Below, one piece after another: positions 1 to 43,250 of a stretch of 64,000 nt of DNA. Each line of letters opens with the position of its first letter. Positions within the stretch are counted from its first letter, which is position 1. The stretch is from Thermoplasmatota archaeon (GTDB taxonomy: Archaea; Thermoplasmatota; Penumbrarchaeia; Penumbrarchaeales; Penumbrarchaeaceae), in assembly GCA_016928095.1 (NCBI GenBank), contig JAFGLL010000061.1, forward strand, positions 1,181 to 65,180, read 5' to 3'. The notes beneath the pieces are model-generated. The model did not search any database and had not been told where the DNA came from. It worked only from the letters and a program-made list of their open reading frames with translations. The position numbers and the translations under genes were made by a program.

Positions 1-3000
1 ACTCACCCATCTACCGCTGTTATTTCCAATATCATTATAATCGATCCTCAGGTCTTCATCCGTATCATTCGCATTGGTCCTGAAAACGATGTAGGTCTGA
101 TTGAAATCCTTATGGTCCCATTCTGAAGGATCGACAAGGTCATAGAACATTGCATTATGACTAAAACTGTCATCTTTATTATCATCCGGGGTATATATCG
201 TTAAATTTCCATATGTCCAAGCCTTCGGACCATGACCAGGACCATTTCCTTCACCATCATTGGAATCCTGGTCCCAGACATTGATGTAGCCATCACCGTC
301 AGTGTCAGTAAACGGATCGGGTTCAACTGAATCCAACAATCCATCATTATCACAATCAGCAATTGTCGGATCTGATTCGAGATAATGTTTAACTTTGTAT
401 CCTTCCGTGAAATATGGATAATTTACCCATTCTGAACCGGTGGGTTTGGAATTGTCATTCCAGTTATCACCAGGTCCTGGAACATAGATCGCCCACGCAT
501 AATCCAATTCAAAGTTCTGATTTCTGTTTTCCTCACCGTCTGTGAATCCATCATTATCCGAATCTATTTCCCTTAGGTCGAATTTGTTATCACCGTCAGA
601 GTCGTAGAACGGATCTCCTTTGACATTCCAATAATAACAGTATTCGATACCGTCAATTATACCATCCTCATCCGTGTCTGCTCTCAGAGGATCGGAGAGT
701 TGGGTGTAATCAACACCAACTTTCTTGTATTCACCAAATTCAATCTGATTGGTATATTGTGGGTAGCTATTCCAACCATCTTCTGAATCGGCGATGTTGA
801 ACTCGCATTCTCCTGTTTCGATTATATCCACTGCGGAGGTATGTTCGGTATCCCACCCATCACACCACCCATCTGGTAGGCCGTCATTGTCGGTGTCCCG
901 GTCACAGGGATTCGTTTCGTCGTAGTCTCTCATCCCATAATTATGCCAGTTCTCCATTTTGTCAGGAAGACCGTCGTTATCGGTATCCACATCCAAGGGA
1001 TTTGTGAACTTGTACTCGTCTTTGTCAGAGAGACCATCGTCGTCAGAATCTGGATCGTTCGGATCGGATGAAAGATATTTACTCCCGATTAGATTCTGAG
1101 CAAAAAAAGTCTTGATCTTTCTGTTATTGTAATCATTTGATGTCAGATTGTATGCAGGAACAAAGTCCTCGACCTTCAAGGTCCAAATGAGTATTTCCTC
1201 GTAGTCAGTAAGTCCATCTCCATCCGAATCAGCACCCATCTGATTGGTCATCTGGAGCAGTATCCCGGTCTTGAACGCCTTGCTCTGGGCAATTCTCCGT
1301 TGATCCCCGGCTGAAAACGGCATTCCATCATCGTACTCATCATCCAGCCAGGAATCACTGCAATAATACAGTTCACCATAATGAGCTGGTAATCCGGTTC
1401 TGACCGAGGCATTGCTGTAAACATCGAACCCATCCCATAATGAGTCTCCATCGGTATCGGCCTTTGTTGGATCAGGTTCGTCTCGATCGTGTTTCCCGTT
1501 CATATTGGAATCCTCACCTTCCCATGGATCGAAATAACCATTTACCTCGTCAACAAAGGAGTATCCATTGTAATCTCCATCATTAACGAAAGTATTAGAA
1601 TAATCGACGAATTCTTTATCGATCGGGTCCCAGATCATACCGTCCATCCAACCATCCGGAAGACCGTCACCATCACTGTCGGGATCGATCATGTTCTCAT
1701 AACCGTCATCATCAGTATCGAAGTTCCAGCTGACCTCGTCACCGTCTAGCAAACCGTCGTTATCGGAATCGGGATCGATCATATTCTCTATACCATCATC
1801 GTCACCAGAGTTAAGGCTCCAGTTAATCTCCTGTCTATCGAGAACCTTATCGTTATCTGAATCCGTGTCTCTCAGATTAGCAACATAGTCAGAATCGCTG
1901 TCGCTGAACATCTGGACCTCTTGACCGTCAACTATGCCGTCGATATCGGAATCTATTTCGAACGGATTGCAGAAATATACCTCGCGGTTCCTGTCAATCG
2001 GTAAATGATTCATGTTCTGTTCGGTTCCAGATCGATTGTAGATCGCGACCTTTCCAGGTAGAATTTTGTATCCCGATTCAGAGTCTTGTGAATCAGGAAT
2101 GACATTCTTTTTGTCCCAAATATACAACTGCGAACTTGACTCGTCCATGAATACGCCGCTCTCGTCCTTCAATCGGAAAAGTAATGTTATATTATCCCAA
2201 CCACAGGGACTGTCGGCAGGTGGATTTGTAACCATCCTGGAGTATGTGAAGTTCATGGTGATAGCCGCTCCAAATCCGTCCCAGTCGTAGTTCAGCCATG
2301 CTGACGAATTATCATATCCTTCGAACCTGAGCGAACCTCCGTCAAAGCTGCTACGGTAAATGACTCCACCTTTGGTATGATATGCACTGGAACCACCCGC
2401 ATATATCTCTTCACCGTCATCTAGGTAGTCGTTGTAAACATCATCCTCAATTATCATCCGGTCAGTGTTATTCTTTTTAGGATGGGTCCCGATAATATAT
2501 TCGTCTCTGTTGCTCAGATCGTCTCCATATTGGTATGAATCAAATTTGTTGCTTAGTAAGATGAACGCGGGTTGAGTGCCAGCGGGAACGCTTTCCCAGG
2601 GGGCATATTCTCCGTTTTTCATCATGTAATCAAGTGGCGAGTTGTCATCATCATTGTTGATCAGGTTCAACATTTGCATCGACTCGTCTCCGCTTATCAC
2701 AATGAAATACTGCATCCCGGATTCCGGCATCACAAGCCCGTTGATATCAAAAATGAACCATCCTTCAAAATCTGCTGGCAGGTCGATATCCATAGATTGA
2801 AGGGAATTATGTGGTTGATCCTTACCCTCCATCAGATAGATATCTCCTGACCAAGAGTCATCTGTTTGCACGTAGAACCTGCCCTCGAAGAAATCAAAGC
2901 GCTCGTCCTCTGTGAAGTTCATCAGTCTGATCGCAAGCTCGTTCTGGTCGATCAACGGGAACTTATCATCTTCCCAGTTCTCTTTGTAATACGGCACATT

Positions 3001-6000
3001 CATCTTTATCGATTCCTTGTCAAGGTCCACGATACGATACCCGAACTTGGCACAGAATTTATTACTGGACGTGTTTTTTATCTGCCAGGCATCGAAAAAT
3101 TGAAAATTCGGATAGAAAGCCCAGAAATTATGGAACATCTCCCTTACCATTTCATCGGGTGCGGTTCCCAATTTGACACTTTCCCAGAGAGCGTCATAAC
3201 TTTCTTCGGGTATATTCTCGTCCTGGAACACCAGGTCAGTGAAAATAAGGACCTGGCCCGGGTCTTCCATTGTGTGTTTGGTATGCCATACCAGACCAGG
3301 ACCTTCATTCGGATGCATGAACTCGTTACGTAACACGATGAAATAAACGGGGTATACATCCGTGGTCATGCTAATACTTGGTAGGTAATCGAAATTACCA
3401 GCCAGAGGTATCTTGATCCACCCGTCATCCGAAACGGTCGGAGGCATCTTGAGCTGGAACACCGGTCGCTCAGGATAAACCGTTTTCGGATTGGTATTGA
3501 GCCAGTCCGGGTCGGTTCCTTCCCAGATCTCTACAATGGTCTCGCTGTAGAAATCGGCTTTGACCTCGATATAGTCCGCATCGAACAGGTCTCCTGCCTT
3601 AACATCAAGTCGTTGTGCGAAACCGTGAATACGGTTTAAAGAGGATCCTTCACACATACTTGACCAGAATTGCCAGTCATAGGTTCCCCGATCGTCGTAT
3701 TCGTTATCGTAATCGATTGTCTCCGGGTTTGTCTCACCTTCCATCAACCCGGCTTCCCATAACACATCCACACCGTCGATGTCCTTGTCATCATCGTCAA
3801 CTGTCGGGTCCAAACCTTCGACCGTTCCATCCCGATAAATAAAATACGGCCAGATATGCGAATACCAGACCTCATACCCGTCGTCAATGGAATCTCCGTC
3901 GGTGTCCAGGGAGGACGCATTGGTCTCGCCTACGCCAGCAACCTCGAAGGTGTACGGATCGAACGACCATACAGCATCAAATGGTTCGGTTTTACCGTCA
4001 AGGTTAAGGTCCTCGCCTTCATAGATCTGTTTCACGTTATCAGGGTCCATCTTCCGGTCCCATTTCCAGGGCTGGTATTCCCAGTAGTCAAGGTTAGCAT
4101 ACCTGTCCCAGAAAGAATCGTAAGATTTTCTATACAACCGTGGGAAAACCTCATCACCGTAATACCAGCCATCGATCCACCCATCAGGTAACCCATCATT
4201 ATCGGTGTCGGGGTCCATAGGATCGGTAAGGGTTGCGCCGTTGTCAGCGTCAAAGTTGTTGATCAGCGAGAAATTGAACGGTGACCGGTCGGACGAATGC
4301 GCGATACGTTCGAAAAAAGAACCGGTGCTGTTCACGTCTCCGTTGATGTATTCGATGAACTGCCCGGATAATCCGAGCTCGACACCGTCTCGAATACCGT
4401 CACCGTCGGAGTCGCGGTCGCCGAAGTCCGTCCCGAAATAGTCCTCCCATTTATCAGATATCCCGTCATGATCAGGGTCGGATGATAGTGCATACCTGGT
4501 CTCGTTGAACGCTTCGTCACCATCATCGATATCGTCCATGTCGGAATCCCTGTTCATCGGGTCAAGGCCCTGGTAATCAACCCGGATATAATCAAGGTAC
4601 TGCAAGGTTATCCTGTCCGGGTCGATGACACCTTCGGGAGTTTCACTGGTCTGGTCAGCAAGGTCAAGAGATAATTCCAGGTAATACATCATACCTCCCT
4701 GTAGCAAATACTCGCCCTGGGAAGTTATCTCGCCGATCACCGCCTTGATCGGTTCCTCATTCGGATCGTTTGATGTGTTGACCACCTTGATGATATTCAC
4801 GTTTTCGGTATAGGTGGACTCGGACGAATATTCGATGGGTGAGACCTCGTTATACGAGTAATAAACCCTCATCTGGAACGATTCCGATAAAATGTCCTGG
4901 AGATACTCGGCCTCTGAACTGTTGAGGTCGAGGTCGGTGACGTTAAGCGACCCCTGCGGAAGTAATTCCGTACGGGGTAGGTTCCCCGGGATCATGGTTC
5001 CCACAAGTTTATCCTGTCGGGATTCAGCCGGGTAGTTCAGGCTGAACCTGTATGTACCGGTTTTATCCGGGACGAACTGGAGTTTGATACTGGAATCTAA
5101 AATTGTGTCGTTGTAATTGGAACTTATCAGAGACACCGACCGCTGCTGGAAGAAACCGTAACCCGCAGTGGTCTTCAGAAGCTCGTTATCCTCGGACAGG
5201 AACTCGGTCATGTAGGTCGGGTTCCAGGGTTTGTATAGCTGAGCATCCTCGCATTCCAGGATGGACACGCCTCCGAACGTGACGATTTCTTCCCCATCGT
5301 TTACATTGTCATAGTCCGTGTCGGGGTCCAGCGGGTCCATGATGAACTCAAGGTTGATCTCGAGATGGTCAAGCGTGACATTGAGCGGGTTCTTGGTATG
5401 GATCTCCATCTCGTAGGTCTGGTCTGTCGTTTTCCCGTACAGGTATTCCAGAATGTCCGGTCCGAAATCGGATGATAGCTCGTCCAACGGGATTACTTTA
5501 CTGGATTCCAGTATCCCCGACCCGGAAGAAGATGCTTCGATCTCAATATACTGCGAGTATACTGATACAATATTTTGGTTGGATGTCGTATCGTTCAGCC
5601 AGCAGAAAGTGTTCTTATGTATCGCAGGAACACTTGGTGAACAGCTTTCCATCAGGATCTTGTTGAAGTTTACATTGATATCATATACACCAAGTGAACC
5701 CTCGGAGGTTGAGTAAACTATGTTCTCGTTGTAAACATCGAACCCGGCTACTGAGATGGGTACGAATTTTAGCTGGTTGTGTGAAAGATCGTAAATACCG
5801 ATCGCCGGTCTTGATTCGGTTCCTGAGCTTACCTGGAACCCGGCATATGCAGCAAACAGCAGGTTCGACCCGGAAATGCGCGGGTTCCAGCATTCCGTGT
5901 AGTCACCGGAGATCAGCGAGGTGGAGTTGACCTTTAGACATGCTTCGGTTGGCATTCCAGCATAAGGCTTGACCGAAGTGACACCTGCTATCCAGACCGA

Positions 6001-9000
6001 GGTTGCACCGGCATGGGTGTCGAGGAACACTATCCTATCATCTTCGATCCTCGGGTAGGTCTGGTCCCAGTCCTCGTCAATGAAGTTCGAACTGGTATTC
6101 AATTCTACATGGAAAATTCCGTTATAAGATATATCCTCGTCAATGTCACCATCGTCGTCATCGTCCAGATAATTGAATGGATCTTCATTGGTATAGCTAT
6201 CATCGTCATCGTCTGTCAGGTAACCGGGTTCGTAGAAATTAGGTATGCCATCATTGTCCAGGTCAATATCAAAAAGGTAAATATCGAAATCCGATCCGTT
6301 CCTGGCCTGGAACACGATCCTGTCTTCGTATATGTAAGGGTTCAGCTGTTCCTCAAGGGTAGAGTTCAGCTGCCTGAACTGCTGTCCGGTCAGGTTCAGT
6401 TCCACCAGATAGATGACCGATTCTGCTCCGTCCCAGCATTCAAACACTACATGGTTGCCGCAAATACTGGGATGGCGGAAATCCTTACCCTCGGAATTGT
6501 ATGTGTCGGTGGTATCCAATACCATGTCATAGACCTTGAGAACGTAATTCGAGCCGACAAGTTCGGTCCAGGCTATCTTATTCCCGTAAACGACCGACGG
6601 ATCACGATACTGATTATTGCTGGTGAACTCGTCAACCGGATCGATGTTCTCAAGGTCGGTCCGGAGCCGGAAGAATGCAGATGTGGCAAAAGATGTGCCT
6701 GGTAGGTATGATGTATGGATCGGGAATGTGTACCCGTATTCTTCGTCCTGCGAGAAATCCGTCTCCGTGATCTCCAGTATCGACGTATCCCCGGTATCAT
6801 CCCCGAACAAGGTCTGTTTTACCTGGGACATGTTGCAGACCATCGCCTTGTCCGCAAACAACCCGACACCCGCCTTCCTTGATGAGACAAGGTAATGAGT
6901 ACCTGATTCTTCGGGTTCGAAAGTGATGTAGTTCCACCTGAACTTATTATCCAGTGAGAAATTCTTCACTGCGATTGAACTCTGGCTACTGTCGAGAACC
7001 TCAAGCTTGAGGTTCTCTTCCTTGATCATCACATCATTCATCCAGACATGGGTCACCCCTTCACCCGGCGAGGTAAGGTTCTTGTTCCCGGCAGAGATAC
7101 CGAAAAAAATCCTGAAAGATGAATAGCTGCGAATATCAGCGGAACCGAGCTGAGAGTATGACCCGAGATAGTTCTTGCGATAGAACCCGATCTCTTTCCC
7201 GTCGGAGATCAGCATGATCTGGTTGCCGGCAAAGTCAAGATCATTATACTGAGCATTTGACCGGTTGGTCTCGGTGAATCCGATGGAGAAGGTCGCTCGC
7301 AACGAATCGTCATCACCGTCCACTACCCCAAATATCATCCTGCTTTCCCTGCCCAGTTTCGTCTCGGACCTCACGGTGTAGTTGAACAAACAGGTGAAAT
7401 TTGTCTGGAACTCACGAAGTGAGTAGTACACATCGTTGCTGATGTCCGTATCCATGCAGGCGACATTTACGCTGTAGTGTGCGTTCCCGGACCCGGAATC
7501 GTCGATAGTGATCGCGCCATCGGATTCACCAGACCCGACATGCTCCCAATTATCCATAAAATCATAGACATCATCGAATGTATCATAGACCTCCCACTCG
7601 GAGTCCTGATCTGCCCTACTACGGAAATAATACCGGTATTCGGTCCCATTGTCAAGCTGGACAGGGATGCTGATCAAGTTAGTTGATAAAGATTCGTTGT
7701 AGATCACATGACCACTGGACGCGTTGATGAACGGACTGATATCTCCGTCACCATAGTATTCGGCTTCGAACCATAATGTTCCCGACCGCTGCTCAACACC
7801 ATCGATGATGAGGTCCTTATCGGAATCCATCATAACGGGGTTGGTGATCAACCCGTCAAGCTCGTCATCGCTCCTGATTATTACGAACGAGTCCAGTAAC
7901 ACCGCATCGGTGGAATCTATCGAGATCTTCAGCATATCAGTGTCCGGGTCGATGGAGAATATCTCGGTTGTGTAATACCTGAATCTACTTGATAAAATAA
8001 ATGACTGGTTGATCGTCAGCGGGTCTGCGGTGTACCCGTCAACTTCCCACACAGATATTTTCACGGTCTGGTTGAACACCTGGTTCTGTGGACCCAGTCT
8101 GAACATGAATCTTATACTGTCATCCGATCCGGGCGGAACCGGTAAGTATTTATTGATGAGCGATCCGCTGGAAGTAGGTTTAAGAGCCTTCTCACCGCAG
8201 GCGTCCCAGGACGGTTCGATCTGGTCTGTTGTCAGGCCAAAGTCCTCGCCCTCATACCAGCAAACATTTTCGTTATTCTCCTGCGAGTCCAGGATATAAT
8301 CGTCATCGGAATCCAACGAATAGGAATTGATCCAGAGCGTCCGGCTCAGGCCGGGGGTGAACGATGCGTTGTTCAGTATACCGTGGTTGCACTGGTCGTC
8401 AAACTCGTTGGTCAACCTGAACTCCGGGTTGCCATAAGATGTTCCGTGGTATGAGTTCCCGCTAAGGTCGCGGATGGTATAGGTTCCTGAGGTCCAGTTG
8501 CTGTCCTCAAACGAGATGAATAAGTCAGGATCAGATGGTGGCTCGCCGATCATGAATAAATTGATCTCGTCAAATGTCAAAGCCCTTCCAAAGTATCCTA
8601 CGTCGTCGATCTTGCCCTTGAAATAATATTCGTTCCTGTTCCCATCGAACGTTGTGGCTTCCGACCCGTCGCCTATGAAACCGAATCTTGTAGCTGTGGT
8701 GCCAAGGCCCAGCCCATTATGTGGATTCTCGGCAATGGCTTCAAGGTCGCCGTCCAGGTATAGGTATTTGTCGGTGCCGTCGTAGACCGCGCACATGAAA
8801 TGCCAGTCCCCATCATTCACTGCGGTAGTCCCGATCAAGTCGTCAATTCCATTATCAGATTTCGTGGAAAAACCCATGTTCCCATTATCGCCCCGAACGT
8901 AAATGTTGAAATACTCACTCCGGTCAAAGTCGAGAAACGCCCAGTTCAGGTTCTGGCCCATACCGGATTCCGTTGTCTTGAACCAACAGAAAGCCGACAT

Positions 9001-12000
9001 CTGGGTGATGCAGTTTTTCTCGCTGAACGACATGTTAAGAGCGATGTAATCGTCACCGTCAAAGTCCATGCATGTTTCATACGACCGGATATTGAACGGA
9101 CCATGGAATATTATCCCGTTTGAGGTCCAGGTGTTCTCCTTGATTAGTATATCCGAAAGTACACCGTCCGAACCGGTGAATCCGTTGAACACCCGGACAC
9201 CGGTCCTGTTCACGATGTCAAAGTCCATGAACGGTGTGACATCGTGCTGGAATCCGGGGTCCATGAACGGGTGTATCTCCGGGTAGGTCTCAATCTGGAC
9301 ACGGCCATACACGTCCAAAAATGACCCGGGATCGGATATCGTGACCTTGTTATCATCGGTCAGGGTATCTATCATCCGACCCTGGCACCCGCCATCAAGA
9401 TCGAGTTGATTGGACATGTCCTCATCGAACGAGCATCCGCTCATCGAAATTTGTCCGTTTGAAGACCGGACGGCTGTGTCGTTGATGTTACTGAATGATA
9501 TGCCCCACTTGGTCAGTCTGGATGTCGAGAACGAGTTACCCTGGAACGATGCCTTGAACTTCAGTTCCGAATAACCGTTGTAAGGTGTCAGGTCAAACGG
9601 TAATGTGTCCACCTTGGTGATTGTATCATTGGACCCGTCCAACAAGTATAGATTCAACCGGTAAAGGTCGTCAGGGTCTTGGTAGGTCACGAACAGCTCG
9701 TCCCATTGGTTATTTGTCGGTCTGGTTATCACATCCGAGACGAGGAACCCGTCGGTGTAGTAAACAGGTACATAATTGGAATTGGTCACGGTGATACCTT
9801 CGACATACACTTCCGGGTCGAACCCTAACCCGATGGATTCTTCGGTAGGGTCTTCAAGCACGGTGATTCTGATAGTGAGGTTATCAATCTCTGTCCAGCC
9901 GGTATTGTTCTCCCTGAACACCTGACCAAATAATTCCAGTAGAGGATCATCAAGGCTCTTGTCGACATATGACGTATTGGTGACATGATACCAGGTCCAA
10001 TGATACCCGGTTTTGATAGATTTCTCCCAGGATTCACCGGTGTAATTCCAGTCATTTTCTTCTGGATGATCGCCCAATAACGTATAGTCAAACGAGCTGA
10101 ACACCATTTTCCGTGACTTGAAGTTCTGGTCGTCACGGCTTATATTGAACGAAATGGACGCTATCGAACCTTCAGTGAAGTTCTCCGGGTTGGCCATCAG
10201 CAGGAACCTGGTCTGTAGAACGTAGTCCATGGCCTGGTCGGACTCATCGAAGTCTATCGTGTATTCAAGGGTTTCATACGAAGCCTCGGACTCGGTCCCT
10301 TCACACGTTACCTTGAGATCCGACCCGGATCCGGACCAGGTATTGTTGGATTTGCTGACCGTCCCGGTCCCCGTCGCGTTCCATTTTTCCTGGTCGATGA
10401 CCGACCAGTTCTCGGAAAAGATCGTGTCTGACCCGGATTCCTTTAACTTGATCGCACTACCGTCCAGAATTAGGTTCTCGTTCAACTCATCGATAGACGC
10501 GACCGAATAGTCGATAGTATATTCCGTCCTAGACTGAGAGAATGAGACGTTGTACAACGAAACATTCCCGTTAAAATTGTTTATCACAGTATTGTCCATT
10601 GAATATACCTGGGACGAATACATCAATAAATTCCCGCCATGGACCTCCATTCCGATATTACAATTTTCGGTAAGGTCCGAGGTCTCATTGTTTATCCTGA
10701 CCCCGATCAGGATCAGAGTGCTGCTAGACGAATAAATAATGTAATCATTCAAGTAGAATGAATCACCGCGCATGGATTGCTGGCTACCATCGGCGAACAA
10801 ACCGATATAGTTACCATAGAAAATATTATCGCTGACACGGGCAGTGGATGGTCCGGGTGACCGGACAACGCCGGATCCACCTGAACATATCGCTGTGGGT
10901 TCACCTAACAGGAACTCGGTGAACCCGTCACCGTTGATGTCGCCCGCGCTTACTGCCTCACCGAACCCGACACCGCTCCCGCTCCCTGTGAACGTGTACA
11001 ATGCTGAACTAACCGAGATAGGATCGGTGTTAACTGCCGAACCTAGCATGATATACGCCTCGATCGAATCCGGGTCAGTAATGATCAGATCCTGGACAAA
11101 GTCGCCATTGATATCGAACCCGCCAACGCATTGATAGCCAAGTGTTGTTGTGCTTTCCGAGGTAAACTGTGTAAAATATTCCGAATAGGTCAGATTATTG
11201 GATTCGAAAAGGGCCTGCCCCGAATATACAGATAAAGTGGAATTCCCAGCAAACACCGCGATATCGTCGAACCTATCACCGTTGATGTCACCCACATTGA
11301 ACACGTTTGTTCCGAAATCACCCGACCCGAATATGATATCCTCGTAACAGTCCGACGATTTTGAACCGGATAACCGGGAACCCGAATACAGGTAAACGGA
11401 TGACGAATAATCGCACCCCACCGCGAGCTCGGTCATGCCGTCGCCAGTGTAATCACCCACCTGAGTCAAATTGGCTCCAAACCCGGTCTCGGCAGACGTT
11501 AAAACACAGTCGGCGGTCTCGTCCATGGACCCGCCTCCAAAATAGATGTAGACCTTGTTCTCGCCCGGAGACCCGACCGCAACATCCGAATACCCGTCGC
11601 CGTTAAAGTCGCCCCCGCTCGTGAAACTTGATCCGAATGTGGAATCGGCCTCGGATATCTGGATGGACCCCAGGGTGGCCTTGAACTGGTACCATAACCG
11701 GATACTGTCAAACGATGGGGTGAACGCGCCGTTGTAATAATCAGCCTCTGAGATATTTATCCGGATCCGGAAGAACTTGGTGTAATACGAATTGAACTGG
11801 ATAGGTGTGCCACTTGACATGGGTTCGTAATACCAGGTGTCACCGTCAACCGACCAGCCAAGGTCGAACGAGACAGATCTGCCGTTCTGCGAATATATGA
11901 TCTGCGGGACCACCTGATCTGCCCAGTCAGGGAGCTCTGCCACAGAGCTCAGGTATGACCCCTCATCGTGGTACCCGGACCCCGTGACGTTCACCGAGTA

Positions 12001-15000
12001 GATTGTCGGCGTGACATCGAACAGGTCGCTCTCCAGGAAGATCTTCACCTGGATATATTTCGTCACAATGTTGGTTGGGGTGAAATCAACCAGATCAACA
12101 AAATAAAACGACCCGGGACCGGTAGGACCGGTCCAGGACCCGTTCTCTATCTGGGAGGTTGTGTTACCGGTTCTTATCTGGTATTTCACATTGGTTTTTT
12201 CCGGGATGGTTACCGGGATATCGACCGATATCAGCCGGACCGGTGATTCGAACGATAATATCGACGAAGTCACATCTGATCGGTACCGGACCATGCTGAA
12301 CAAATTGATCCGGCTCATTATAAACTCGTCAACCGCACCTGCGAAGTAGTTACCGTCGTCGTTTCTACCGATATATAACTTGCCGGTGTTGTCAAAAGAT
12401 AGATAAGGTACTTCAACGAAACCGTAGACACGGCCGTTGACAAACGACCGAAGTACACCGTCTCCGAACGTGAACCCGACCTGGGTCCACCGACCCACAC
12501 AATCGTTCATATCAACGTCCTCGATAGGGGTGGATGTGGAATACCAGATGGACCCGGCACGGGCATACACGATCAAGCAATAATCGTTGTAATTTTTCTC
12601 TATACTGAGATTGAACGAGTTGTCCTTTTCAAGTATCACGTACCGGTCGTCTGTTAGCTCCTGAGGCATCTTCACGAACAGACTTAGGGTCATACCATAC
12701 TCATCGTAATCGAAATTGGTGTCATTGACAAAGAGATAATCGTCAACACCGTCAAGGGAAACAGCCGACCCGATATGACCGGTGACCCAATCGGATCCGT
12801 AGCCGGACCCGTCAAATAGGACGGCTTTCTGAGAACTGTCGTGATGGTTCTTGGAGTTGAGCCCAGTTCCCTCATCAAACCTGATCGATGTGATCTGATC
12901 TGTATCAAATGACCAGGTCGAATTGAAATGATCACGTTTGACGTAGCTTATCCGGGCGTCATCAATCTTCCCGAGGAAATATTCGCCTACCTTGATCACG
13001 GCCCCGTCTTCCAGGATCGGACCGGTACTGGACACGGATTTCTGGGCGTCCAACCTGCCATTGATGAACGTTTTGATTATTCCGTTGGTATTGTCATAGG
13101 TCAACCCCACATGGTACCATGTATTGAACTGGTCATCGAAATTTAAACAACTGTATGATGTATCTGTCCATTGCTCGGACCCGTCCTGTTTGACCATGCC
13201 ACGGAGATAAATGTCGCCATAACCGTCCTCAAACAGAGATAACCCGTATGACCCTGGACGGGTGATGATGTAGTTATGACCTGCATGGCCGGTTCCTGTC
13301 GGGTAGATCCATGCATCAAGGCTGATATCAGTATCGATGGTGTAATCGAACCCGGCAGTGGTAAATGACACATACGACGAATCCGAACCGTTGAATGACA
13401 GGCATCTACCGAACCTGCCATCTGACCAGGCTGCGTCGTAGATGTCACCGTTATTGGACAGGATATTGTCAACGGTCATCGTACCAGATCCTTCGTTCAT
13501 ATTACATAGAAAAATTGTATCTTCGTCTGACAATGATTCGGATTCGGATCGGAAATATATCAATGTCGGGAAATCCGACCGGGGGATGTTGGACAATCTG
13601 ACCTCATCGAATCGACCTTTAAATTTGTTCATGTAATCATACGACTCATATTCGGCGCCAATGATCAGTCTGCTTTCATAATCACCGGACCAGTCATCAG
13701 AGTCATCAGTATCGAACTGGAGCACCCCGTCAATATACATCTTAATACCGTCGCCCCAGGTAACTGCAACATGATACCACTTGTTCGAGTCCCAGGAAGT
13801 CCGATCGGACCAGACAGTATGAGGGCTGTCATGGTCTATGATGAATGTCAAATGACCATTATCCTCATCAAAAAATAATGACATGTAATCGTTTGAAGGT
13901 CCCTTAATATCCATCAGATAAACTGGATCCTCTGACAATGCAGAGAATGGTTCTTGAAGATTGAAATACATCTCGAAGGTTCCAGTGGTCAGATTGAACC
14001 TATTACCACAATCAATATAACTACCCATACCACACGACTCAAGGCATCCATCGAAGTACCCTTTTGTATCCCATTCAAATGAATCAGGAGTGAGTGTGAA
14101 ATCGTAGCAGTCGTAATAGAATTCATTATAGACATCCATGCCTGAGGTCTCATCCAGATGAAGAAGTAATTCAGTATATATATCAGCAGAATAGGAATGC
14201 AATCCTCCTTCCCTGGGATCTAAAGGGGTTGTTTCAATGGCCTCTGTGTAAAAATACAGTTCATCGATCCAACCATGAAAGTTCGAAAAGGTGGTATATG
14301 GTAGTGCATCATTATAAGAATCTTCGGGAGGATTGCATCCCTCAGGATCGGTCAACGGTCGCTGCCCAAGAACATAAAACTCAGAATCGGTATCAAGCTC
14401 AAATTTATTCTCGACGGTTTCGTTCATCTTCTCGATATCTCGGACCTCTCCATCAAGTTCAAGGAATGCATAATGGTCCTTAAAATATACTCGGACATGA
14501 TGTGTCTCATCCTTATCTATTATATCACCTGCAGATAGTAACCGCGAGGTTGTTAAGGAACCGTTGAACATGCATGTATAACCCTGGGGAAGGTCCTCAT
14601 AATGATAAACATCAGTGAACCGGATATCGTCGACATAGAACAATCCATCATAAGGCGGTAGGTCCTTGTCAGCGATCAGGATGATCCTATCGAAACCGAA
14701 ATCTGTAGTGCTAACGATAGAAGCCCAATCCGAATAGATGTTTTCCATGAACATATCGAATTGCATATTTTGCGTCATTGTCCCATCATCTACCCAGTTA
14801 CCTACAGCCATCTCTTCTTGTGCGAAAGGTGTGGTGCCTCCAAGATAATAAATCAGCTCATTCCGTGAAGGACCAGTCCCGTTTGCAATACCAATTGCGG
14901 CTATTTCACCGATATTATCGCATCTGATGAAAAAATTGAATTGGGCAGTAGTATCCAGGTAATATTGTCCGATCTCCCATTCCATCCATGAATCACCATC

Positions 15001-16839
15001 ACATTGAAACGAGCTTAAAGGTGACAAGAAAACATTACTCTGAGATCCTTCCATTTCATCGTTGTTATCCGCTCCAGGTACTATTCCTTCATAAAAATGA
15101 AGATCTTCATTCTGGTCAATGTATAGCTCTAGTCGATTATCTTGTACTTTGGTCGGGACCAAATTTGGGATGTAATCGTATTCCAGATCAACGGTATATG
15201 TTTCTACATGGACTTGATTATTCTGAAGAACGATCCCCATTTCAGGAACTGTAAGGTTGGTATCATACAATCCCATCAACATTTTCCGATGATTTGTCTC
15301 AAGGTCACTCCTTTCGTCTTCGCAATAACCAGGATTCCTGAACCAAAAGTCAATCGTTCCATCACCATTTAGATATGGGGATTCTAATGGTTCGGAAGTG
15401 ATCCCGAGTTTTAAGTAATCATCCACCCCGTCAAAATAAATCGCTTTATCTGAATGACCGGTCTTGTACGTTGGTGTAGTACTATCATTTCCGTCATAAT
15501 ATATTGATGACCATTCTCTTGATGTTTTTTCAAATCCCAAATATTCATTTTTACTTGAATCAAATGGAAAATAACTAGTGCAATAATCCGATGCTGGATC
15601 GAATGTAAGAATAGAATAATCTTTAGGGAAACTAATCGATACACCGTCCGTCCAGAAATCTAAATCGGTTGAGTCTACCCGATCAGATGACTTGTTCAAT
15701 TCCCACATTACCGATGAAGTGGTATCTATCAAGACCAGTTGACCAGATCCTTTTTCTCCTCCCTGTTGGGCTGCCATTCCAAATAAGTTCCCTGATTGGA
15801 AATCTGTAATTGTTTCATTTGATATTTTACCTCCAAACCCGGAAATGTTTGTGAAATAAACATATACGGAATTATTTCCCGGTGCTGAAATGACCAAGTC
15901 ATTTAGCCCGTCGCCGTTCATATCGCCGTTGAAATCGATCTTGCTTCCGAACATGTCCCCGGAGTCTTTCCCGTATAATTTTATATCCGCATCGAACGGG
16001 GTCAGCTCGGACAAACAAATATCCGGACTGCCATAGAAAAGGTAAACCGCACCAGCATCCGACGCAACAGTATCGTCATACGGAGCCGATATCACCACAT
16101 CCGTGAAGGTATCATTGTTGAAGTCCCACATGCAACTGACATAGGTTCCGAAACCATTGTCCCCTTCGTTATCGTAGATCATCGCCCCTTCGCTTGTGGA
16201 GTTGAAGAAATAGATACCGAACTGGTTGTTGTAGATCTCGTTATTTGTGATGATCGGGTTCGAACAGACGAAAATACCGAATATCTCGTTGTCATGGATC
16301 TTACTACTAGATATACTGACGTTGTCACCGAGTACAACGATACCTCCCTCGGAGGGGGAGCCGCCGACAAAGGAGATGTCGGAGTTCTGAATGGAGGCGT
16401 TGCCCTCGATCTTGAGATCATAAAAATATCCACCAGACCTGTTGATAACCGATACCGTGGTCCCGTCAAGGTATAACTCACCGCATATTCCGGTTGTTTC
16501 GTTCTTCTGGACATGCAGGATGAAGTTACCCTCGACCGGATGATGGAAAAGTAACTCACAGTTGATAAGAGAGAGATTCCCACCTGGTTGGATCACCACA
16601 TTACCGTAGATCTTCAGTACTTCATTCTCTCTGACGACCGTATCACCCGGTTCGATGTACCAGTCATTGTAGGTGTAGCCATCATAAGGTTCGCCCACCT
16701 CGGACCAGAGTTTGTCCACGATAGGGCTGAAATTCACGATGTACATCATAACAACTAAGGAAATGGCGATCACCTTCGTTGCTCTCGATATTTTTTTCTG
16801 GATGTTTTCAGAAATATGGATCTTCTCTTGCCATCTCAT
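1..16839 (-). CDS. Giant secreted/membrane-anchored surface protein (adhesin-like), 5' end at ATG 16839, 3' end beyond the left edge (>=5,613 codons in window)
   Basis: Hand translation of the minus frame: ATG at 16839-16837 is preceded by an in-frame TAA at 16863-16861 and a G-rich stretch (GGGGGGAAG) 7 nt upstream. N-terminus MRWQEKIHISENIQKKISRATKVIAISLVVMMYIVNF is a signal anchor. Downstream are right-handed beta-helix repeats (IHDNEIFGIFVCSNPIITNNEIYNNQFGIYFFNS) and FG-GAP-like repeats (DFNNDTFTDVVISAPYDD..GAVYLFYGS; DFNGDMNGDGLNDLVISAPGNNSVYVYF). Spot translations at ~12000, ~8000, 241-420 and 1-60 stay open in the same frame. Near the left edge the sequence is calcium-binding repeats (ADCDNDGLLDSVEPDPFTDTDGDGYINVWDQDSNDGEGNG). 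Every ORF the track lists in 1-16839 is short and in another frame. The track skipped this ORF because it has no stop inside the window. Confidence 0.8.
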   Translation of the reverse strand, partial: MRWQEKIHISENIQKKISRATKVIAISLVVMMYIVNFSPIVDKLWSEVGEPYDGYTYNDWYIEPGDTVVRENEVLKIYGNVVIQPGGNLSLINCELLFHHPVEGNFILHVQKNETTGICGELYLDGTTVSVINRSGGYFYDLKIEGNASIQNSDISFVGGSPSEGGIVVLGDNVSISSSKIHDNEIFGIFVCSNPIITNNEIYNNQFGIYFFNSTSEGAMIYDNEGDNGFGTYVSCMWDFNNDTFTDVVISAPYDDTVASDAGAVYLFYGSPDICLSELTPFDADIKLYGKDSGDMFGSKIDFNGDMNGDGLNDLVISAPGNNSVYVYFTNISGFGGKISNETITDFQSGNLFGMAAQQGGEKGSGQLVLIDTTSSVMWELNKSSDRVDSTDLDFWTDGVSISFPKDYSILTFDPASDYCTSYFPFDSSKNEYLGFEKTSREWSSIYYDGNDSTTPTYKTGHSDKAIYFDGVDDYLKLGITSEPLESPYLNGDGTIDFWFRNPGYCEDERSDLETNHRKMLMGLYDTNLTVPEMGIVLQNNQVHVETYTVDLEYDYIPNLVPTKVQDNRLELYIDQNEDLHFYEGIVPGADNNDEMEGSQSNVFLSPLSSFQCDGDSWMEWEIGQYYLDTTAQFNFFIRCDNIGEIAAIGIANGTGPSRNELIYYLGGTTPFAQEEMAVGNWVDDGTMTQNMQFDMFMENIYSDWASIVSTTDFGFDRIILIADKDLPPYDGLFYVDDIRFTDVYHYEDLPQGYTCMFNGSLTTSRLLSAGDIIDKDETHHVRVYFKDHYAFLELDGEVRDIEKMNETVENKFELDTDSEFYVLGQRPLTDPEGCNPPEDSYNDALPYTTFSNFHGWIDELYFYTEAIETTPLDPREGGLHSYSADIYTELLLHLDETSGMDVYNEFYYDCYDFTLTPDSFEWDTKGYFDGCLESCGMGSYIDCGNRFNLTTGTFEMYFNLQEPFSALSEDPVYLMDIKGPSNDYMSLFFDEDNGHLTFIIDHDSPHTVWSDRTSWDSNKWYHVAVTWGDGIKMYIDGVLQFDTDDSDDWSGDYESRLIIGAEYESYDYMNKFKGRFDEVRLSNIPRSDFPTLIYFRSESESLSDEDTIFLCNMNEGSGTMTVDNILSNNGDIYDAAWSDGRFGRCLSFNGSDSSYVSFTTAGFDYTIDTDISLDAWIYPTGTGHAGHNYIITRPGSYGLSLFEDGYGDIYLRGMVKQDGSEQWTDTSYSCLNFDDQFNTWYHVGLTYDNTNGIIKTFINGRLDAQKSVSSTGPILEDGAVIKVGEYFLGKIDDARISYVKRDHFNSTWSFDTDQITSIRFDEGTGLNSKNHHDSSQKAVLFDGSGYGSDWVTGHIGSAVSLDGVDDYLFVNDTNFDYDEYGMTLSLFVKMPQELTDDRYVILEKDNSFNLSIEKNYNDYCLIVYARAGSIWYSTSTPIEDVDMNDCVGRWTQVGFTFGDGVLRSFVNGRVYGFVEVPYLSFDNTGKLYIGRNDDGNYFAGAVDEFIMSRINLFSMVRYRSDVTSSILSFESPVRLISVDIPVTIPEKTNVKYQIRTGNTTSQIENGSWTGPTGPGSFYFVDLVDFTPTNIVTKYIQVKIFLESDLFDVTPTIYSVNVTGSGYHDEGSYLSSVAELPDWADQVVPQIIYSQNGRSVSFDLGWSVDGDTWYYEPMSSGTPIQFNSYYTKFFRIRINISEADYYNGAFTPSFDSIRLWYQFKATLGSIQISEADSTFGSSFTSGGDFNGDGYSDVAVGSPGENKVYIYFGGGSMDETADCVLTSAETGFGANLTQVGDYTGDGMTELAVGCDYSSSVYLYSGSRLSGSKSSDCYEDIIFGSGDFGTNVFNVGDINGDRFDDIAVFAGNSTLSVYSGQALFESNNLTYSEYFTQFTSESTTTLGYQCVGGFDINGDFVQDLIITDPDSIEAYIMLGSAVNTDPISVSSALYTFTGSGSGVGFGEAVSAGDINGDGFTEFLLGEPTAICSGGSGVVRSPGPSTARVSDNIFYGNYIGLFADGSQQSMRGDSFYLNDYIIYSSSSTLILIGVRINNETSDLTENCNIGMEVHGGNLLMYSSQVYSMDNTVINNFNGNVSLYNVSFSQSRTEYTIDYSVASIDELNENLILDGSAIKLKESGSDTIFSENWSVIDQEKWNATGTGTVSKSNNTWSGSGSDLKVTCEGTESEASYETLEYTIDFDESDQAMDYVLQTRFLLMANPENFTEGSIASISFNISRDDQNFKSRKMVFSSFDYTLLGDHPEENDWNYTGESWEKSIKTGYHWTWYHVTNTSYVDKSLDDPLLELFGQVFRENNTGWTEIDNLTIRITVLEDPTEESIGLGFDPEVYVEGITVTNSNYVPVYYTDGFLVSDVITRPTNNQWDELFVTYQDPDDLYRLNLYLLDGSNDTITKVDTLPFDLTPYNGYSELKFKASFQGNSFSTSRLTKWGISFSNINDTAVRSSNGQISMSGCSFDEDMSNQLDLDGGCQGRMIDTLTDDNKVTISDPGSFLDVYGRVQIETYPEIHPFMDPGFQHDVTPFMDFDIVNRTGVRVFNGFTGSDGVLSDILIKENTWTSNGIIFHGPFNIRSYETCMDFDGDDYIALNMSFSEKNCITQMSAFCWFKTTESGMGQNLNWAFLDFDRSEYFNIYVRGDNGNMGFSTKSDNGIDDLIGTTAVNDGDWHFMCAVYDGTDKYLYLDGDLEAIAENPHNGLGLGTTATRFGFIGDGSEATTFDGNRNEYYFKGKIDDVGYFGRALTFDEINLFMIGEPPSDPDLFISFEDSNWTSGTYTIRDLSGNSYHGTSYGNPEFRLTNEFDDQCNHGILNNASFTPGLSRTLWINSYSLDSDDDYILDSQENNENVCWYEGEDFGLTTDQIEPSWDACGEKALKPTSSGSLINKYLPVPPGSDDSIRFMFRLGPQNQVFNQTVKISVWEVDGYTADPLTINQSFILSSRFRYYTTEIFSIDPDTDMLKISIDSTDAVLLDSFVIIRSDDELDGLITNPVMMDSDKDLIIDGVEQRSGTLWFEAEYYGDGDISPFINASSGHVIYNESLSTNLISIPVQLDNGTEYRYYFRSRADQDSEWEVYDTFDDVYDFMDNWEHVGSGESDGAITIDDSGSGNAHYSVNVACMDTDISNDVYYSLREFQTNFTCLFNYTVRSETKLGRESRMIFGVVDGDDDSLRATFSIGFTETNRSNAQYNDLDFAGNQIMLISDGKEIGFYRKNYLGSYSQLGSADIRSYSSFRIFFGISAGNKNLTSPGEGVTHVWMNDVMIKEENLKLEVLDSSQSSIAVKNFSLDNKFRWNYITFEPEESGTHYLVSSRKAGVGLFADKAMVCNMSQVKQTLFGDDTGDTSILEITETDFSQDEEYGYTFPIHTSYLPGTSFATSAFFRLRTDLENIDPVDEFTSNNQYRDPSVVYGNKIAWTELVGSNYVLKVYDMVLDTTDTYNSEGKDFRHPSICGNHVVFECWDGAESVIYLVELNLTGQQFRQLNSTLEEQLNPYIYEDRIVFQARNGSDFDIYLFDIDLDNDGIPNFYEPGYLTDDDDDSYTNEDPFNYLDDDDDGDIDEDISYNGIFHVELNTSSNFIDEDWDQTYPRIEDDRIVFLDTHAGATSVWIAGVTSVKPYAGMPTEACLKVNSTSLISGDYTECWNPRISGSNLLFAAYAGFQVSSGTESRPAIGIYDLSHNQLKFVPISVAGFDVYNENIVYSTSEGSLGVYDINVNFNKILMESCSPSVPAIHKNTFCWLNDTTSNQNIVSVYSQYIEIEASSSGSGILESSKVIPLDELSSDFGPDILEYLYGKTTDQTYEMEIHTKNPLNVTLDHLEINLEFIMDPLDPDTDYDNVNDGEEIVTFGGVSILECEDAQLYKPWNPTYMTEFLSEDNELLKTTAGYGFFQQRSVSLISSNYNDTILDSSIKLQFVPDKTGTYRFSLNYPAESRQDKLVGTMIPGNLPRTELLPQGSLNVTDLDLNSSEAEYLQDILSESFQMRVYYSYNEVSPIEYSSESTYTENVNIIKVVNTSNDPNEEPIKAVIGEITSQGEYLLQGGMMYYLELSLDLADQTSETPEGVIDPDRITLQYLDYIRVDYQGLDPMNRDSDMDDIDDGDEAFNETRYALSSDPDHDGISDKWEDYFGTDFGDRDSDGDGIRDGVELGLSGQFIEYINGDVNSTGSFFERIAHSSDRSPFNFSLINNFDADNGATLTDPMDPDTDNDGLPDGWIDGWYYGDEVFPRLYRKSYDSFWDRYANLDYWEYQPWKWDRKMDPDNVKQIYEGEDLNLDGKTEPFDAVWSFDPYTFEVAGVGETNASSLDTDGDSIDDGYEVWYSHIWPYFIYRDGTVEGLDPTVDDDDKDIDGVDVLWEAGLMEGETNPETIDYDNEYDDRGTYDWQFWSSMCEGSSLNRIHGFAQRLDVKAGDLFDADYIEVKADFYSETIVEIWEGTDPDWLNTNPKTVYPERPVFQLKMPPTVSDDGWIKIPLAGNFDYLPSISMTTDVYPVYFIVLRNEFMHPNEGPGLVWHTKHTMEDPGQVLIFTDLVFQDENIPEESYDALWESVKLGTAPDEMVREMFHNFWAFYPNFQFFDAWQIKNTSSNKFCAKFGYRIVDLDKESIKMNVPYYKENWEDDKFPLIDQNELAIRLMNFTEDERFDFFEGRFYVQTDDSWSGDIYLMEGKDQPHNSLQSMDIDLPADFEGWFIFDINGLVMPESGMQYFIVISGDESMQMLNLINNDDDNSPLDYMMKNGEYAPWESVPAGTQPAFILLSNKFDSYQYGDDLSNRDEYIIGTHPKKNNTDRMIIEDDVYNDYLDDGEEIYAGGSSAYHTKGGVIYRSSFDGGSLRFEGYDNSSAWLNYDWDGFGAAITMNFTYSRMVTNPPADSPCGWDNITLLFRLKDESGVFMDESSSQLYIWDKKNVIPDSQDSESGYKILPGKVAIYNRSGTEQNMNHLPIDRNREVYFCNPFEIDSDIDGIVDGQEVQMFSDSDSDYVANLRDTDSDNDKVLDRQEINWSLNSGDDDGIENMIDPDSDNDGLLDGDEVSWNFDTDDDGYENMIDPDSDGDGLPDGWMDGMIWDPIDKEFVDYSNTFVNDGDYNGYSFVDEVNGYFDPWEGEDSNMNGKHDRDEPDPTKADTDGDSLWDGFDVYSNASVRTGLPAHYGELYYCSDSWLDDEYDDGMPFSAGDQRRIAQSKAFKTGILLQMTNQMGADSDGDGLTDYEEILIWTLKVEDFVPAYNLTSNDYNNRKIKTFFAQNLIGSKYLSSDPNDPDSDDDGLSDKDEYKFTNPLDVDTDNDGLPDKMENWHNYGMRDYDETNPCDRDTDNDGLPDGWCDGWDTEHTSAVDIIETGECEFNIADSEDGWNSYPQYTNQIEFGEYKKVGVDYTQLSDPLRADTDEDGIIDGIEYCYYWNVKGDPFYDSDGDNKFDLREIDSDNDGFTDGEENRNQNFELDYAWAIYVPGPGDNWNDNSKPTGSEWVNYPYFTEGYKVKHYLESDPTIADCDNDGLLDSVEPDPFTDTDGDGYINVWDQDSNDGEGNGPGHGPKAWTYGNLTIYTPDDNKDDSFSHNAMFYDLVDPSEWDHKDFNQTYIVFRTNANDTDEDLRIDYNDIGNNSGRWVS

Positions 16840-17224
16840 AACACTTCCCCCCAGATTTCTTTATCCATTCAAACCATTGAATGATGGGGTATTTAAATGA
16901 AAATAAAAATGGACCTCCCGCAAGGGGGGTCTATATAATACTTTCGCTTTCATTTTTATCACCGGAAAAAAAGACGTGTTCCAAGGGTATGACATATGGC
17001 CGAAAGGGGGGAGAAAGTGACCGGGAGGCCATGAGGATGACCATAATACAGGAGACTCCAACGAAATTTAGGTCCCATGATATATCGATAAACAGAAAGG
17101 GTATCCCCTTTGTAAGTCCATACCCCCATCAGAGCGAAAAGTGGACTTCAATGATCATGATCCTGACGAGATGGATGGAATCTTTTTATTACCAATATCA
17201 GTATGTCATATATTGGGTCCAATA

Positions 17225-18274
17225 ATGAAACTTGACATGTCAAAGATGATTCCTGTTGTACTGATAGTAATTCTATCGGTCCCTCTATTTTACTACATAT
17301 TATTCTATCCCGATAAAAGAAACAATGATACTGAAAACAGATTGGATATGGTCATAGGTTTCTATATCTCAGGTGAGGATTTTCTTCAACAACTCATCGA
17401 CGAGGATATATCAGACACATTAGGATTGTCATCCGATAGGATCGAATTCTATTACCTTGTCGACTATTCCGGGTTCGGAAATACTGAGTTCTTTCATGCC
17501 AGGAATTATACTAAGATCCCATTGAATATCTCACAAATTCTTCCATATGACTCTTCAGAACTGGATATGGGCTCGGATGAGGTATTTGCAGGTTTTGTCG
17601 ATTATATATCTGATATCGAGGCAAAAGATCATTGCTTGATCATATGGGGACATGGACGGGGGTATGAAGGAGTATGTTTTGATGGCAGTTCCATGCTCAC
17701 AGGAAAAGAGATCGGATCGAGTCTTACCGGAAAAGGAATAGACCTTCTCATCTTTGATGCCTGTGAAATGATCTGTGCTGAATTCCTCTACGAATTGAGA
17801 GATCCGGTTAGATACATACTCGGATCGGAAAAGGATATCCCGGATCGCGGATTGGATTATTCAGGGGGGTTCACAAGGTTTTTTGGATCCAATTCGAGAG
17901 ATATCAAGAACCTTGCCATCGACATCATGGATGAAACTTTTTCGTATTATTCCAGGAACCCGTCCAGGTTCTCCTTACAACTATCGTTGATCGATATGTC
18001 GGACTTCATGGCATTTTCTCGGGACTTCACATCATCCTTTCTGACCGAGAACTCCATCTATCCGGATCGTTTCGAATCCGGGAAGAGGTTCGACCTTGGG
18101 CTTCTTCTCGAAATGAACAATGAAACATGCCTCCTGAGGACGTTGGAGGATTCGATAGAATACCTGATGATCCTTCCATCCACTTCAGGGGTACCGGTCA
18201 AAGGCCTGTACGGTATATCCGTCCTGTCGCCTGAGTTCACAGAAGATGGGATCGACAATCCGTTCCTTCTCTGA
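17225..18274 (+). CDS. Membrane-anchored clan CD cysteine peptidase (C11 clostripain-like)
   Basis: Track ORF 17141..18274 begins at a GTG. The more likely start is ATG 17225 (MKLDMSKM), followed by a TM helix (IPVVLIVILSVPLFYYILF). Catalytic His-Gly and Cys motifs typical of C11/clan CD: LIIWGHGRGYEG and LLIFDACEM. A TATA-like CATATATT sits ~20 nt upstream. Transcribed divergently from the giant surface protein. Confidence 0.55.
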   Translation: MKLDMSKMIPVVLIVILSVPLFYYILFYPDKRNNDTENRLDMVIGFYISGEDFLQQLIDEDISDTLGLSSDRIEFYYLVDYSGFGNTEFFHARNYTKIPLNISQILPYDSSELDMGSDEVFAGFVDYISDIEAKDHCLIIWGHGRGYEGVCFDGSSMLTGKEIGSSLTGKGIDLLIFDACEMICAEFLYELRDPVRYILGSEKDIPDRGLDYSGGFTRFFGSNSRDIKNLAIDIMDETFSYYSRNPSRFSLQLSLIDMSDFMAFSRDFTSSFLTENSIYPDRFESGKRFDLGLLLEMNNETCLLRTLEDSIEYLMILPSTSGVPVKGLYGISVLSPEFTEDGIDNPFLL

Positions 18275-43200: not shown

Positions 43201-43250
43201 TGATCCTTACGATGGGTCTCCTCTATTACCTTCTCAGGCGAAAACTCTGA
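40206..43250 (+). CDS. Large surface protein with multiple CARDB-like domains, signal peptide and C-terminal TM anchor
   Basis: 1014 aa. Signal peptide [30 protein letters not shown]. Several CARDB-like segments ([39 protein letters not shown]; [22 protein letters not shown]). C-terminal [32 protein letters not shown]-like TCATATATCC ~35 nt upstream. Confidence 0.8.

Follow-up and report, generated by a model that had tools for sequence, protein, structure and literature searches.

A giant gene of an uncultured Thermoplasmatota archaeon and its likely product, an adhesin-like surface protein

Does a giant open reading frame (ORF) that is missing from the ORF track of an archaeal contig belong to a real gene, and if so, what would its product do? 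The stretch of DNA in question (the window) comprises 64,000 nucleotides of contig JAFGLL010000061.1 from an uncultured Thermoplasmatota archaeon, and an earlier reading of the letters alone (the sequence-only reading) had proposed that its minus strand, from position 16839 down to position 1 and beyond, encodes a single multi-domain surface protein. Our analysis established that window positions 1-16839 form the 5' part, 5,613 codons long, of one real gene of this archaeon. We consider it likely that the product is a membrane-anchored, calcium-stiffened, adhesin-like giant surface protein with lectin- and integrin-like domains.

Reverse-complement translation of window 1-16839 gave 5,613 stop-free codons on the minus strand, as the sequence-only reading had claimed, and no frameshift was needed to keep the frame open. 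The other five frames of the same region carry 179-461 stops each and stay open for 255 codons at most, and the probability of 5,613 stop-free codons, estimated from base composition, is ~1e-135. The ATG lies at 16839-16837, where it had been placed; an in-frame stop is found 8 codons 5' of it, and the codon directly 5' of it is GTT, a non-start. The 3' end of the ORF is cut by the window edge without a stop. A search of 5.8e9 proteins retrieved an entry identical to the window product, GenBank MBN1390101.1 (P0001 below), titled [quoted passage not shown] (MAG, metagenome-assembled genome). This protein of 6,006 aa has the same start codon as the window ORF, which corresponds to its residues 1-5,613; it is encoded on an 86,315-bp contig and runs off the contig end, adding 393 residues beyond the window edge, so that the predicted run past position 1 is real. 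The giant gene is thus already annotated in GenBank, although still incomplete. It is indeed missing from the ORF track, for the reason that had been given (the ORF lister drops ORFs running off either end), but it is "hidden" only as an artefact of that track, since a GenBank gene call with the same start exists. The extension also answers in part where the C-terminus lies: 393 more residues are known, but the contig ends before the C-terminus.

An independent assembly of a homolog bears most directly on whether the frame is one gene. On ENA contig ERZ25039514:contig_85131 (353 kb; L001/L003), three called ORFs of 3,183, 881 and 2,578 aa are together collinear with P0001 aa 1-6006 in a global alignment, in which identity is 40-66% for every 200-aa stretch and any indel is shorter than 15 aa. 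This collinearity and identity argue for purifying selection over the whole length. The sequence-only reading had asked whether the region might be a mis-assembled tandem repeat. No tandem or long direct repeats were found at the DNA level in the giant gene; its best repeats are 30-nt motifs of 67-83% identity that encode FG-GAP calcium loops, together with one further pair of 64 nt and 72% identity. Given the lack of such repeats and the collinearity of the independent assembly throughout the 6,006 known residues, a repeat collapse or a chimeric join is very unlikely. The homolog runs 657 aa beyond the point at which P0001 is cut, hence an expected full length of ~6,660 aa; the product, at least 6,006 aa, is probably of about this length, with a predicted mass of roughly 0.7 MDa and a pI (isoelectric point) of about 4.

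Other relatives are few and fragmentary. RKX53208.1 (P0132) is a fragment, 54% identical, on a 5-kb piece labelled "Thermotoga sp.", a label that is clearly a mis-binning; P0263 is a fragment of 410 aa. A scan of metagenome contigs with a non-repeat segment yielded a 57% identical relative on JGI contig Ga0272443_10012553 (L088, 3616-7146), which starts at the equivalent of aa 4757 of the giant protein, is N-terminally truncated, being preceded by stops and unrelated DNA, and lies on a contig that stops short of the C-terminus. In a profile scan of genome contigs the generic TSP3 pattern dominated, and the best archaeal match among the matches listed was 35% identical; neither the window's MAG nor the L001 contig was among them. 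The segment aa 2000-3199 retrieved 2,742 matches from 1.84e9 representative proteins, but a large family could not be read from these ~2,700 matches, as nearly all cover only the LamG domain at aa 2590-2800; among those inspected, only homolog P0002 and P0263 match outside it, which makes the family proper very rare.

The N-terminal part of the protein was expected to hold a membrane anchor, and a hydrophobic segment is found at aa 17-42 (window 16714..16791, minus strand; Kyte-Doolittle window score 2.27), preceded by a basic stretch. Homolog P0002 has the same Kyte-Doolittle feature at aa 13-43, and the segment is a predicted signal anchor or uncleaved signal peptide. Pfam and NCBIfam scans of ten overlapping 620-aa segments then gave a series of distinct domains, all on the minus strand. 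A first FG-GAP cluster, of integrin-alpha-type propeller blades, occupies aa 228-346 (15802..16158; PF01839, 45.7 bits, 2 stretches), and aa 219-329 match integrin alpha-M/X/IIb sequences of the PDB. A second cluster, of at least 4 repeats, occupies aa 1735-1997 (10849..11637; PF01839, 92.2 bits, 4 stretches; PF13517, 61.1 bits), with a PDB sequence match of aa 1898-1997 to integrin alpha-5/alpha-V (E=1e-6). Overall, PF01839 scores 121.6 bits against a threshold of 22.1, with at least 6 repeats in two clusters, and in this respect the proposal of a multi-domain surface-type protein holds.

The strongest domains of the protein had been overlooked by the sequence-only reading. They are laminin G-like (LamG, concanavalin-A-like lectin) domains, of which a cluster of three units lies at aa 949-1506 (12322..13995; PF13385 and PF02210); within aa 1-2000, Laminin_G_3 (PF13385) reaches 142.6 bits against a threshold of 27.6, in 3 stretches. 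An isolated LamG domain follows at aa 2594-2760 (8560..9060; PF13385, 64.8 bits), and with a weak Laminin_G_1 match at aa 767-827 the protein has four or five in total. The LamG domain of aa 2590-2800 (window 8440-9070) belongs to a widespread and strikingly conserved subfamily, whose identity is 45-57% in hundreds of multi-LamG proteins that are otherwise unrelated and reach 7,018 aa; as the related fragment P0263 is without it, it behaves as an inserted mobile domain. Farther on, beta-propeller repeats at aa ~3400-3760 (5560..6642) enclose an acidic DxDxDG insert and match TIGR04275 (beta_prop_Msarc) with E=1.2e-16 and 60.2 bits against a whole-protein cut-off of 85, the model aligning at about aa 3493-3525.

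The beta-helix that had been claimed fared less well. A parallel beta-helix-like stretch at aa 141-225 (16165..16419) matches PF05048 NosD below threshold (E=4.7e-4, 20.1 bits against a cut-off of 23.6) and TIGR03804 likewise (19.0 bits against 19.45), so that a right-handed parallel beta-helix (PF13229/PF05048; TIGR03804), being below the curated cut-offs, is suggestive only. The CARDB domain, also envisaged, is absent: none of the ten segments matched PF07705 at E<=1, and a CARDB domain occurs instead in the window gene at 40206-43250. About 2,000 aa of the giant protein have no recognised family in Pfam or NCBIfam. From aa 2776 to 4995 the 620-aa segments gave nothing beyond the propeller repeats and a weak match to CglD-type repeats, and the PDB sequence search was without a match in the second half of the protein.

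The remainder of the known sequence is an acidic stalk of TSP3-type, predicted calcium-binding repeats (PF18884) interspersed with unmatched domains, which covers aa 4100-5613 in the window (1..4542, minus strand) and continues to at least aa 6006. PF18884 (TSP3_bac) scores 27.4 bits against a cut-off of 25, in 7 stretches of aa 4996-5613, and is marginal (18.9 bits) on a 2,013-aa piece. [DN]x[DN]x[DN]G-type motifs number 29 in the protein, 25 of them from aa 4121 onward, so that the TSP3/DxDxDG repeats had been rightly recognised. Aspartate and glutamate make up 19-26% of the stalk region; the giant protein as a whole has a pI of 4.05 and 11.8% aspartate, and its N-x-S/T sequons number 96, with 62 expected. 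Such acidity and sequon excess fit an extracellular glycoprotein. No GGxGxD motif occurs in the 6,006 known residues.

The window gene being cut, its C-terminus was approached through its relatives. In the homolog in L003 (P0131), TSP3 repeats are followed by ~200 aa of a conserved domain and finally by ~270 aa with 6-7 hydrophobic segments (Kyte-Doolittle). An AlphaFold model of this C-terminal module, built from a 19-sequence alignment, has pLDDT (predicted local distance difference test) values of 85-95 over the TSP3 region and a beta-sandwich, while the tail is all-helical and of low confidence; the tail of the homolog is thus probably helical and would span the membrane several times. An archaeosortase signature would consist of a PGF/PEF motif, one transmembrane (TM) helix and a basic tail; P0131 ends in the ~270 aa with 6-7 hydrophobic segments, and the window gene is without its own C-terminus. 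Foldseek searches with the module model returned only generic Ig-like folds (PKD, CARDB, SoxYZ), none with E<=0.001, which means that the conserved part of the module has no obvious enzyme or toxin fold. A cysteine-rich motif, CCGACCCGG, stands directly before the first hydrophobic helix of the tail (P0131 aa 2313-2322; L003 ~16900-17000) and could be a lipidation or metal-binding site.

The same C-terminal 2,000-2,500 aa (TSP3 stalk, conserved inter-repeat domains and Ig-like domain) are found at 29-42% identity, with many invariant positions, in Thermoplasmatota proteins of ~3,850-4,000 aa: P0136, P0137, P0139, P0140 (MBN1281081.1, titled "choice-of-anchor J domain-containing protein"), P0141, P0142 and P0145. 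For the part of the stalk that lies in the window, identity to such proteins is 30-40%. Several of these also have the hydrophobic tail. Their heads differ, being of Beta_helix/NosD/Tricorn_N type, ~2,700 aa shorter and without FG-GAP and LamG. Comparison of the sequences thus suggests a family design in which a variable head is set on a common stalk and anchor.

The gene neighborhood offers one further clue. Divergent from the giant gene and 300 bp upstream of it lies a gene for a cysteine peptidase of the clostripain family (C11) that carries a TM segment at its N-terminus (17141..18274, plus strand; PF03415, 98.8 bits against 25.8), whose start is probably the Met at ~17225. A counterpart, 49% identical, occupies the same position in L001, and the His (IWGHG) and Cys (DACEM) motifs are intact in both copies; no shared synteny with L001 was found beyond these two genes. 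The divergent intergenic region (16840..17140) contains, as read from the sequence, A/T-rich TATA-like boxes (TTTTTATTTT at ~16909-16900 and TTTAAATA at 16897-16890) and a G-rich stretch at 16852-16847, just 5' of the giant-gene ATG. The boxes are putative promoter elements by inference; a bacterial-type promoter scan of the region was uninformative.

From the observed reading frame, its conservation, its domains and the neighboring gene we infer a topology, a calcium-stiffened stalk, an adhesive function and a protease link, as follows. The N-terminal hydrophobic segment would start translocation, and the giant protein would be exported and held in the cell membrane. Its C-terminus, by homology with the sole full-length relative, would consist of an Ig-like domain and then a helical tail, which probably makes several passes through the membrane. 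The head would take up the N-terminal 4,000 aa and be composed of the weak beta-helix, the FG-GAP clusters, the LamG domains, the propeller and ~2,000 aa of unassigned modules, and the last ~2,000 aa would form the acidic TSP3 stalk. Once stiffened by calcium, this stalk would hold the lectin and propeller domains off the cell, where they might bind glycans, particles or other cells. The membrane-anchored C11 peptidase may process or release the giant protein, by analogy with the action of LapG on LapA.

Several points weigh against this picture. The window gene's own C-terminus lies beyond the contig end and was found in neither the genome-contig nor the metagenome-contig scan, and the membrane tail is therefore taken from a homolog that is 54-57% identical. 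The AlphaFold model of aa 4060-5259 (12-row alignment) was unusable, with a mean pLDDT of 40.5; this and the ~2,000 aa without a family mean that enzymatic or other activities may have gone unrecognised. The link with the peptidase is not universal, since a C1 peptidase gene lies upstream of P0140 and no peptidase gene upstream of P0137. Finally, the homolog in L001 carries a 1-nt frameshift and an in-frame TAA at a P0001 CAA (L001 19380-19680, 22050-22300) and hence could be a pseudogene copy. The L001 locus would have suffered either long-read assembly errors or recent inactivation; because the adjoining C11 gene is frameshifted too (L001 8773-9886), we suspect errors rather than decay.

In bacterial giant calcium-dependent adhesins of the RTX/BAP type (LapA, MpIBP, SiiE), a long calcium-stiffened extender projects ligand-binding domains, and LapG is a release protease. 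The adhesin-like reading of the giant protein shares with LapA-type adhesins the logic of the extender and a nearby cysteine protease gene, here of the C11 family instead of the LapG family. However, the two differ in the extender, made of TSP3 repeats here and of Ig-like repeats there, and in the anchor, which would be in the cytoplasmic membrane here and is an outer-membrane plug there. Unlike LapA-type adhesins, the giant protein has no RTX nonapeptides and no type I secretion context; an RTX-type giant adhesin carries its GGxGxD nonapeptides near the C-terminus, and none occurs in the known residues of the giant protein, whose own C-terminus is beyond the contig. With integrin alpha and bacterial FG-GAP proteins (PMC3192720) the giant protein has in common the FG-GAP repeats with DxDxDG calcium loops, as is also seen from the PDB matches to alpha-5, alpha-V and alpha-M. 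Only the propeller blades are common to integrin alpha and the giant protein (E-values ~1e-6), which has neither a thigh or calf domain nor a beta-subunit partner. The TSP3 repeat region also aligns with Myxococcus CglD/MtsD (NF033765, NF047639; 69 bits, E=1.9e-19), but membership in CglD (NF033765) was rejected, as the TSP3 repeats alone align and the 69 bits stand against an equivalog cut-off of 400.

Published surveys place the protein among known kinds. Archaeal proteins of more than 5,000 aa are few (PMC11573180), in line with the rarity that had been claimed for such giants, and another survey of giant genes, which describes a bacterial TSP3/dockerin class, likewise finds them less numerous in archaea (bioRxiv 10.1101/2023.11.21.568195). 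Among archaeal proteins above 5,000 aa no domain is more frequent than Laminin_G_3, and their most frequent Gene Ontology terms include "cell adhesion" and "ion binding" (PMC11573180). The giant protein resembles these huge proteins in its size and in the dominance of Laminin_G_3, with its four or five LamG domains. Their commonest architecture, whose function is not understood according to the survey, is set apart by its description: it has one N-terminal LamG (PMC11573180), whereas the giant protein combines LamG with two FG-GAP clusters, a propeller and a TSP3 stalk, and its homolog, unlike that architecture, has a probable multi-pass membrane tail. The giant protein is unusual in size, but its kind is already known.

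Could the protein be mainly structural, a giant component of the envelope or matrix (a halomucin-like coat, spacer or scaffold) instead of a ligand-specific adhesin? Its extreme size and strong acidity (pI 4.05), the excess of N-glycosylation sequons, ~2,000 aa of calcium-binding repeats and the presence of several other TM-anchored surface proteins in the window are all in keeping with such a role, and halomucin-type giants are the best known archaeal precedent (PMC11573180). The head, however, is made of distinct binding-type domains (LamG, FG-GAP) that succeed each other without repetition and are conserved between homologs at each position; it is neither of low complexity nor mucin-like, and repeats are lacking at the DNA level. 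The rarity of the family (P0002 and one fragment outside LamG, among 1.84e9 representatives) would also be unexpected for an essential envelope component. No halomucin was among the 9 matches of a search with 4,999 aa, a search that favours similar length and shared words. We regard a mainly structural role as unlikely, though it is the alternative that survives best. The sequence-only reading had spoken of a wall-less cell; only some Thermoplasmatales are without a cell wall, and the taxonomy of the GenBank record goes as far as the phylum, Candidatus Thermoplasmatota.

A second alternative arises from the tails of the relatives. Among 19 modules of the family, mean pairwise identity drops abruptly at a junction, from 48% in the TSP3 and Ig part to 16% in the tail, and tail length varies from 75 to 522 aa. 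In L002 (5973-16377) and L006 (10001-14559), which belong to other Thermoplasmatota MAGs, each locus has an array of two or three orphan modules of 540-900 aa. These modules lack a signal peptide, and the sequence still homologous to the giant protein has stops just upstream of it. The relative in L088 is another truncated copy. In L003 the module region is 15818-18201, and a small gene for a protein with two TM segments (154 aa, overlapping the stop) lies directly 3' of the full-length gene there; such a gene also follows at least one module in each array (175 aa in L002, 144 aa in L006), the small proteins of the three loci having no detectable mutual similarity. Near the cassettes of L002 and L003, on the opposite strand, is a conserved gene of ~110 aa with a GYCDVVD..EID motif. 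An identical 43-nt GC-rich element, GCCGAGCAGGCCGGAGGGGTnTGnGGnGGAGGCCAGCGCAGGC, followed by the hairpin CATGCGAAGCATG, precedes orphan modules in two MAGs, its copies being recognised by sequence identity at L002 9777-9819 and 13171-13213 and at L006 9902-9944 and 13084-13126. The surroundings of this element form a stable fold (z = -3.0), and gene callers translate it into shared "junk" N-termini; it has no Rfam match, and neither the window nor viral contigs contain it. The L002 modules sit among HEPN/NTase and AbiEii genes.

Taken together, these features would suit a delivery scaffold of a polymorphic contact-dependent effector or self/non-self system, with a variable hydrophobic C-terminal domain, a two-TM partner or immunity protein and spare cassettes. 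The ~110-aa gene and the 43-nt element that accompany the cassettes, and the HEPN/NTase and AbiEii neighbors, could be read in the same sense. There is a likeness, at the level of families, to polymorphic toxins (CdiA-CT/CdiI, Rhs) and to the hypervariable Ig-protein module of Thermococcales (PMC8416519): a conserved body, a variable C-terminus, orphan cassettes and a small membrane-protein gene downstream. Unlike polymorphic toxins, the giants have no recognised toxin or immunity domain, and what varies in them is a membrane region, helical and probably multi-pass. Motifs of toxins, nucleases or pre-toxins were not detected, Pfam being blank for the tails and for the small two-TM proteins. 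Nothing of the kind is visible in the window, because the contig ends before the 3' end of the gene and what follows it; a variable polytopic tail would equally be expected of a membrane anchor under weak constraint; the L002 cassettes are only 70-77% identical at the DNA level, with no sign of recent recombination; and no orphan modules lie downstream of the full-length L003 gene. It is thus somewhat more doubtful still than a structural role that the Thermoplasmatota giants serve as such a scaffold, and we hold with equal reserve the idea that their exchangeable hypervariable tail, two-TM partner and spare cassettes marked by the 43-nt element make up a contact-dependent effector or kin-recognition system that would use a membrane-inserting domain, not an enzyme toxin.

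It is highly improbable that the long frame is artefactual, a mis-assembled join of several genes, or that it belongs to a dead gene, a pseudogene open by chance: the MAG does derive from a metagenome, GC3 (G+C content at third codon positions) swings between 0.39 and 0.65 along the gene, below that of neighbouring genes, and the sole full-length homolog is broken twice, but a frame open by chance is expected at ~1e-135, the assembly from another sample keeps the order of all domains without an indel of 15 aa or more, the gene has no repeats that could mislead an assembler, and conservation is even (40-66%) over its entire length.

The other genes of the window include the archaeal housekeeping genes for class I LysRS, S7, aEF-2, aEF-1alpha and geranylgeranyl reductase, and the Rfam scan found two tRNAs only. 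The mean GC3 of the giant gene is 0.56 (0.39-0.65) and that of the C11 peptidase gene 0.47, against 0.60-0.72 for other window genes; these low values could reflect a foreign origin or weak codon selection. Three further surface-type proteins, each with a hydrophobic segment at the N-terminus and one TM helix at the C-terminus, are encoded in the window: one with PKD domains (23121-25709, plus strand), one with Beta_helix, Big_7 and TSP3 domains (34972-37410, minus strand) and one with CARDB domains (40206-43250, plus strand). In all three a basic or proline-rich tail follows the C-terminal TM helix. They had been taken for paralogs of the giant protein with a like C-terminal anchor, but only that at 34972-37410 has TSP3 repeats and none has the module or the head, so that we rejected them as paralogs; their single TM helix also differs from the probable multi-pass tail of the giant's homolog. 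A KaiC/GvpD-like ATPase gene (60290-61660, plus strand) adjoins a gene (62233-63960, minus strand) whose product fuses a VWA domain to HVO_0163-type and winged-helix DNA-binding domains and which is unrelated to the giant gene.

Archaea have few proteins of more than 5,000 aa, hardly any of them studied, and the giant protein is a well-supported example whose architecture is kept in two independent assemblies. The giant gene has a C11 partner gene, its stalk-and-anchor design links it to Thermoplasmatota proteins of ~3,900 aa, and it is presumably important, because ~20 kb of a small genome are spent on it. Its product is a candidate for the attachment of uncultured sediment archaea to particles, polymers or partners. 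The more interesting lead is the variable tails, orphan modules and small partner genes of its relatives, which could point to an archaeal system of cell-cell recognition or antagonism.

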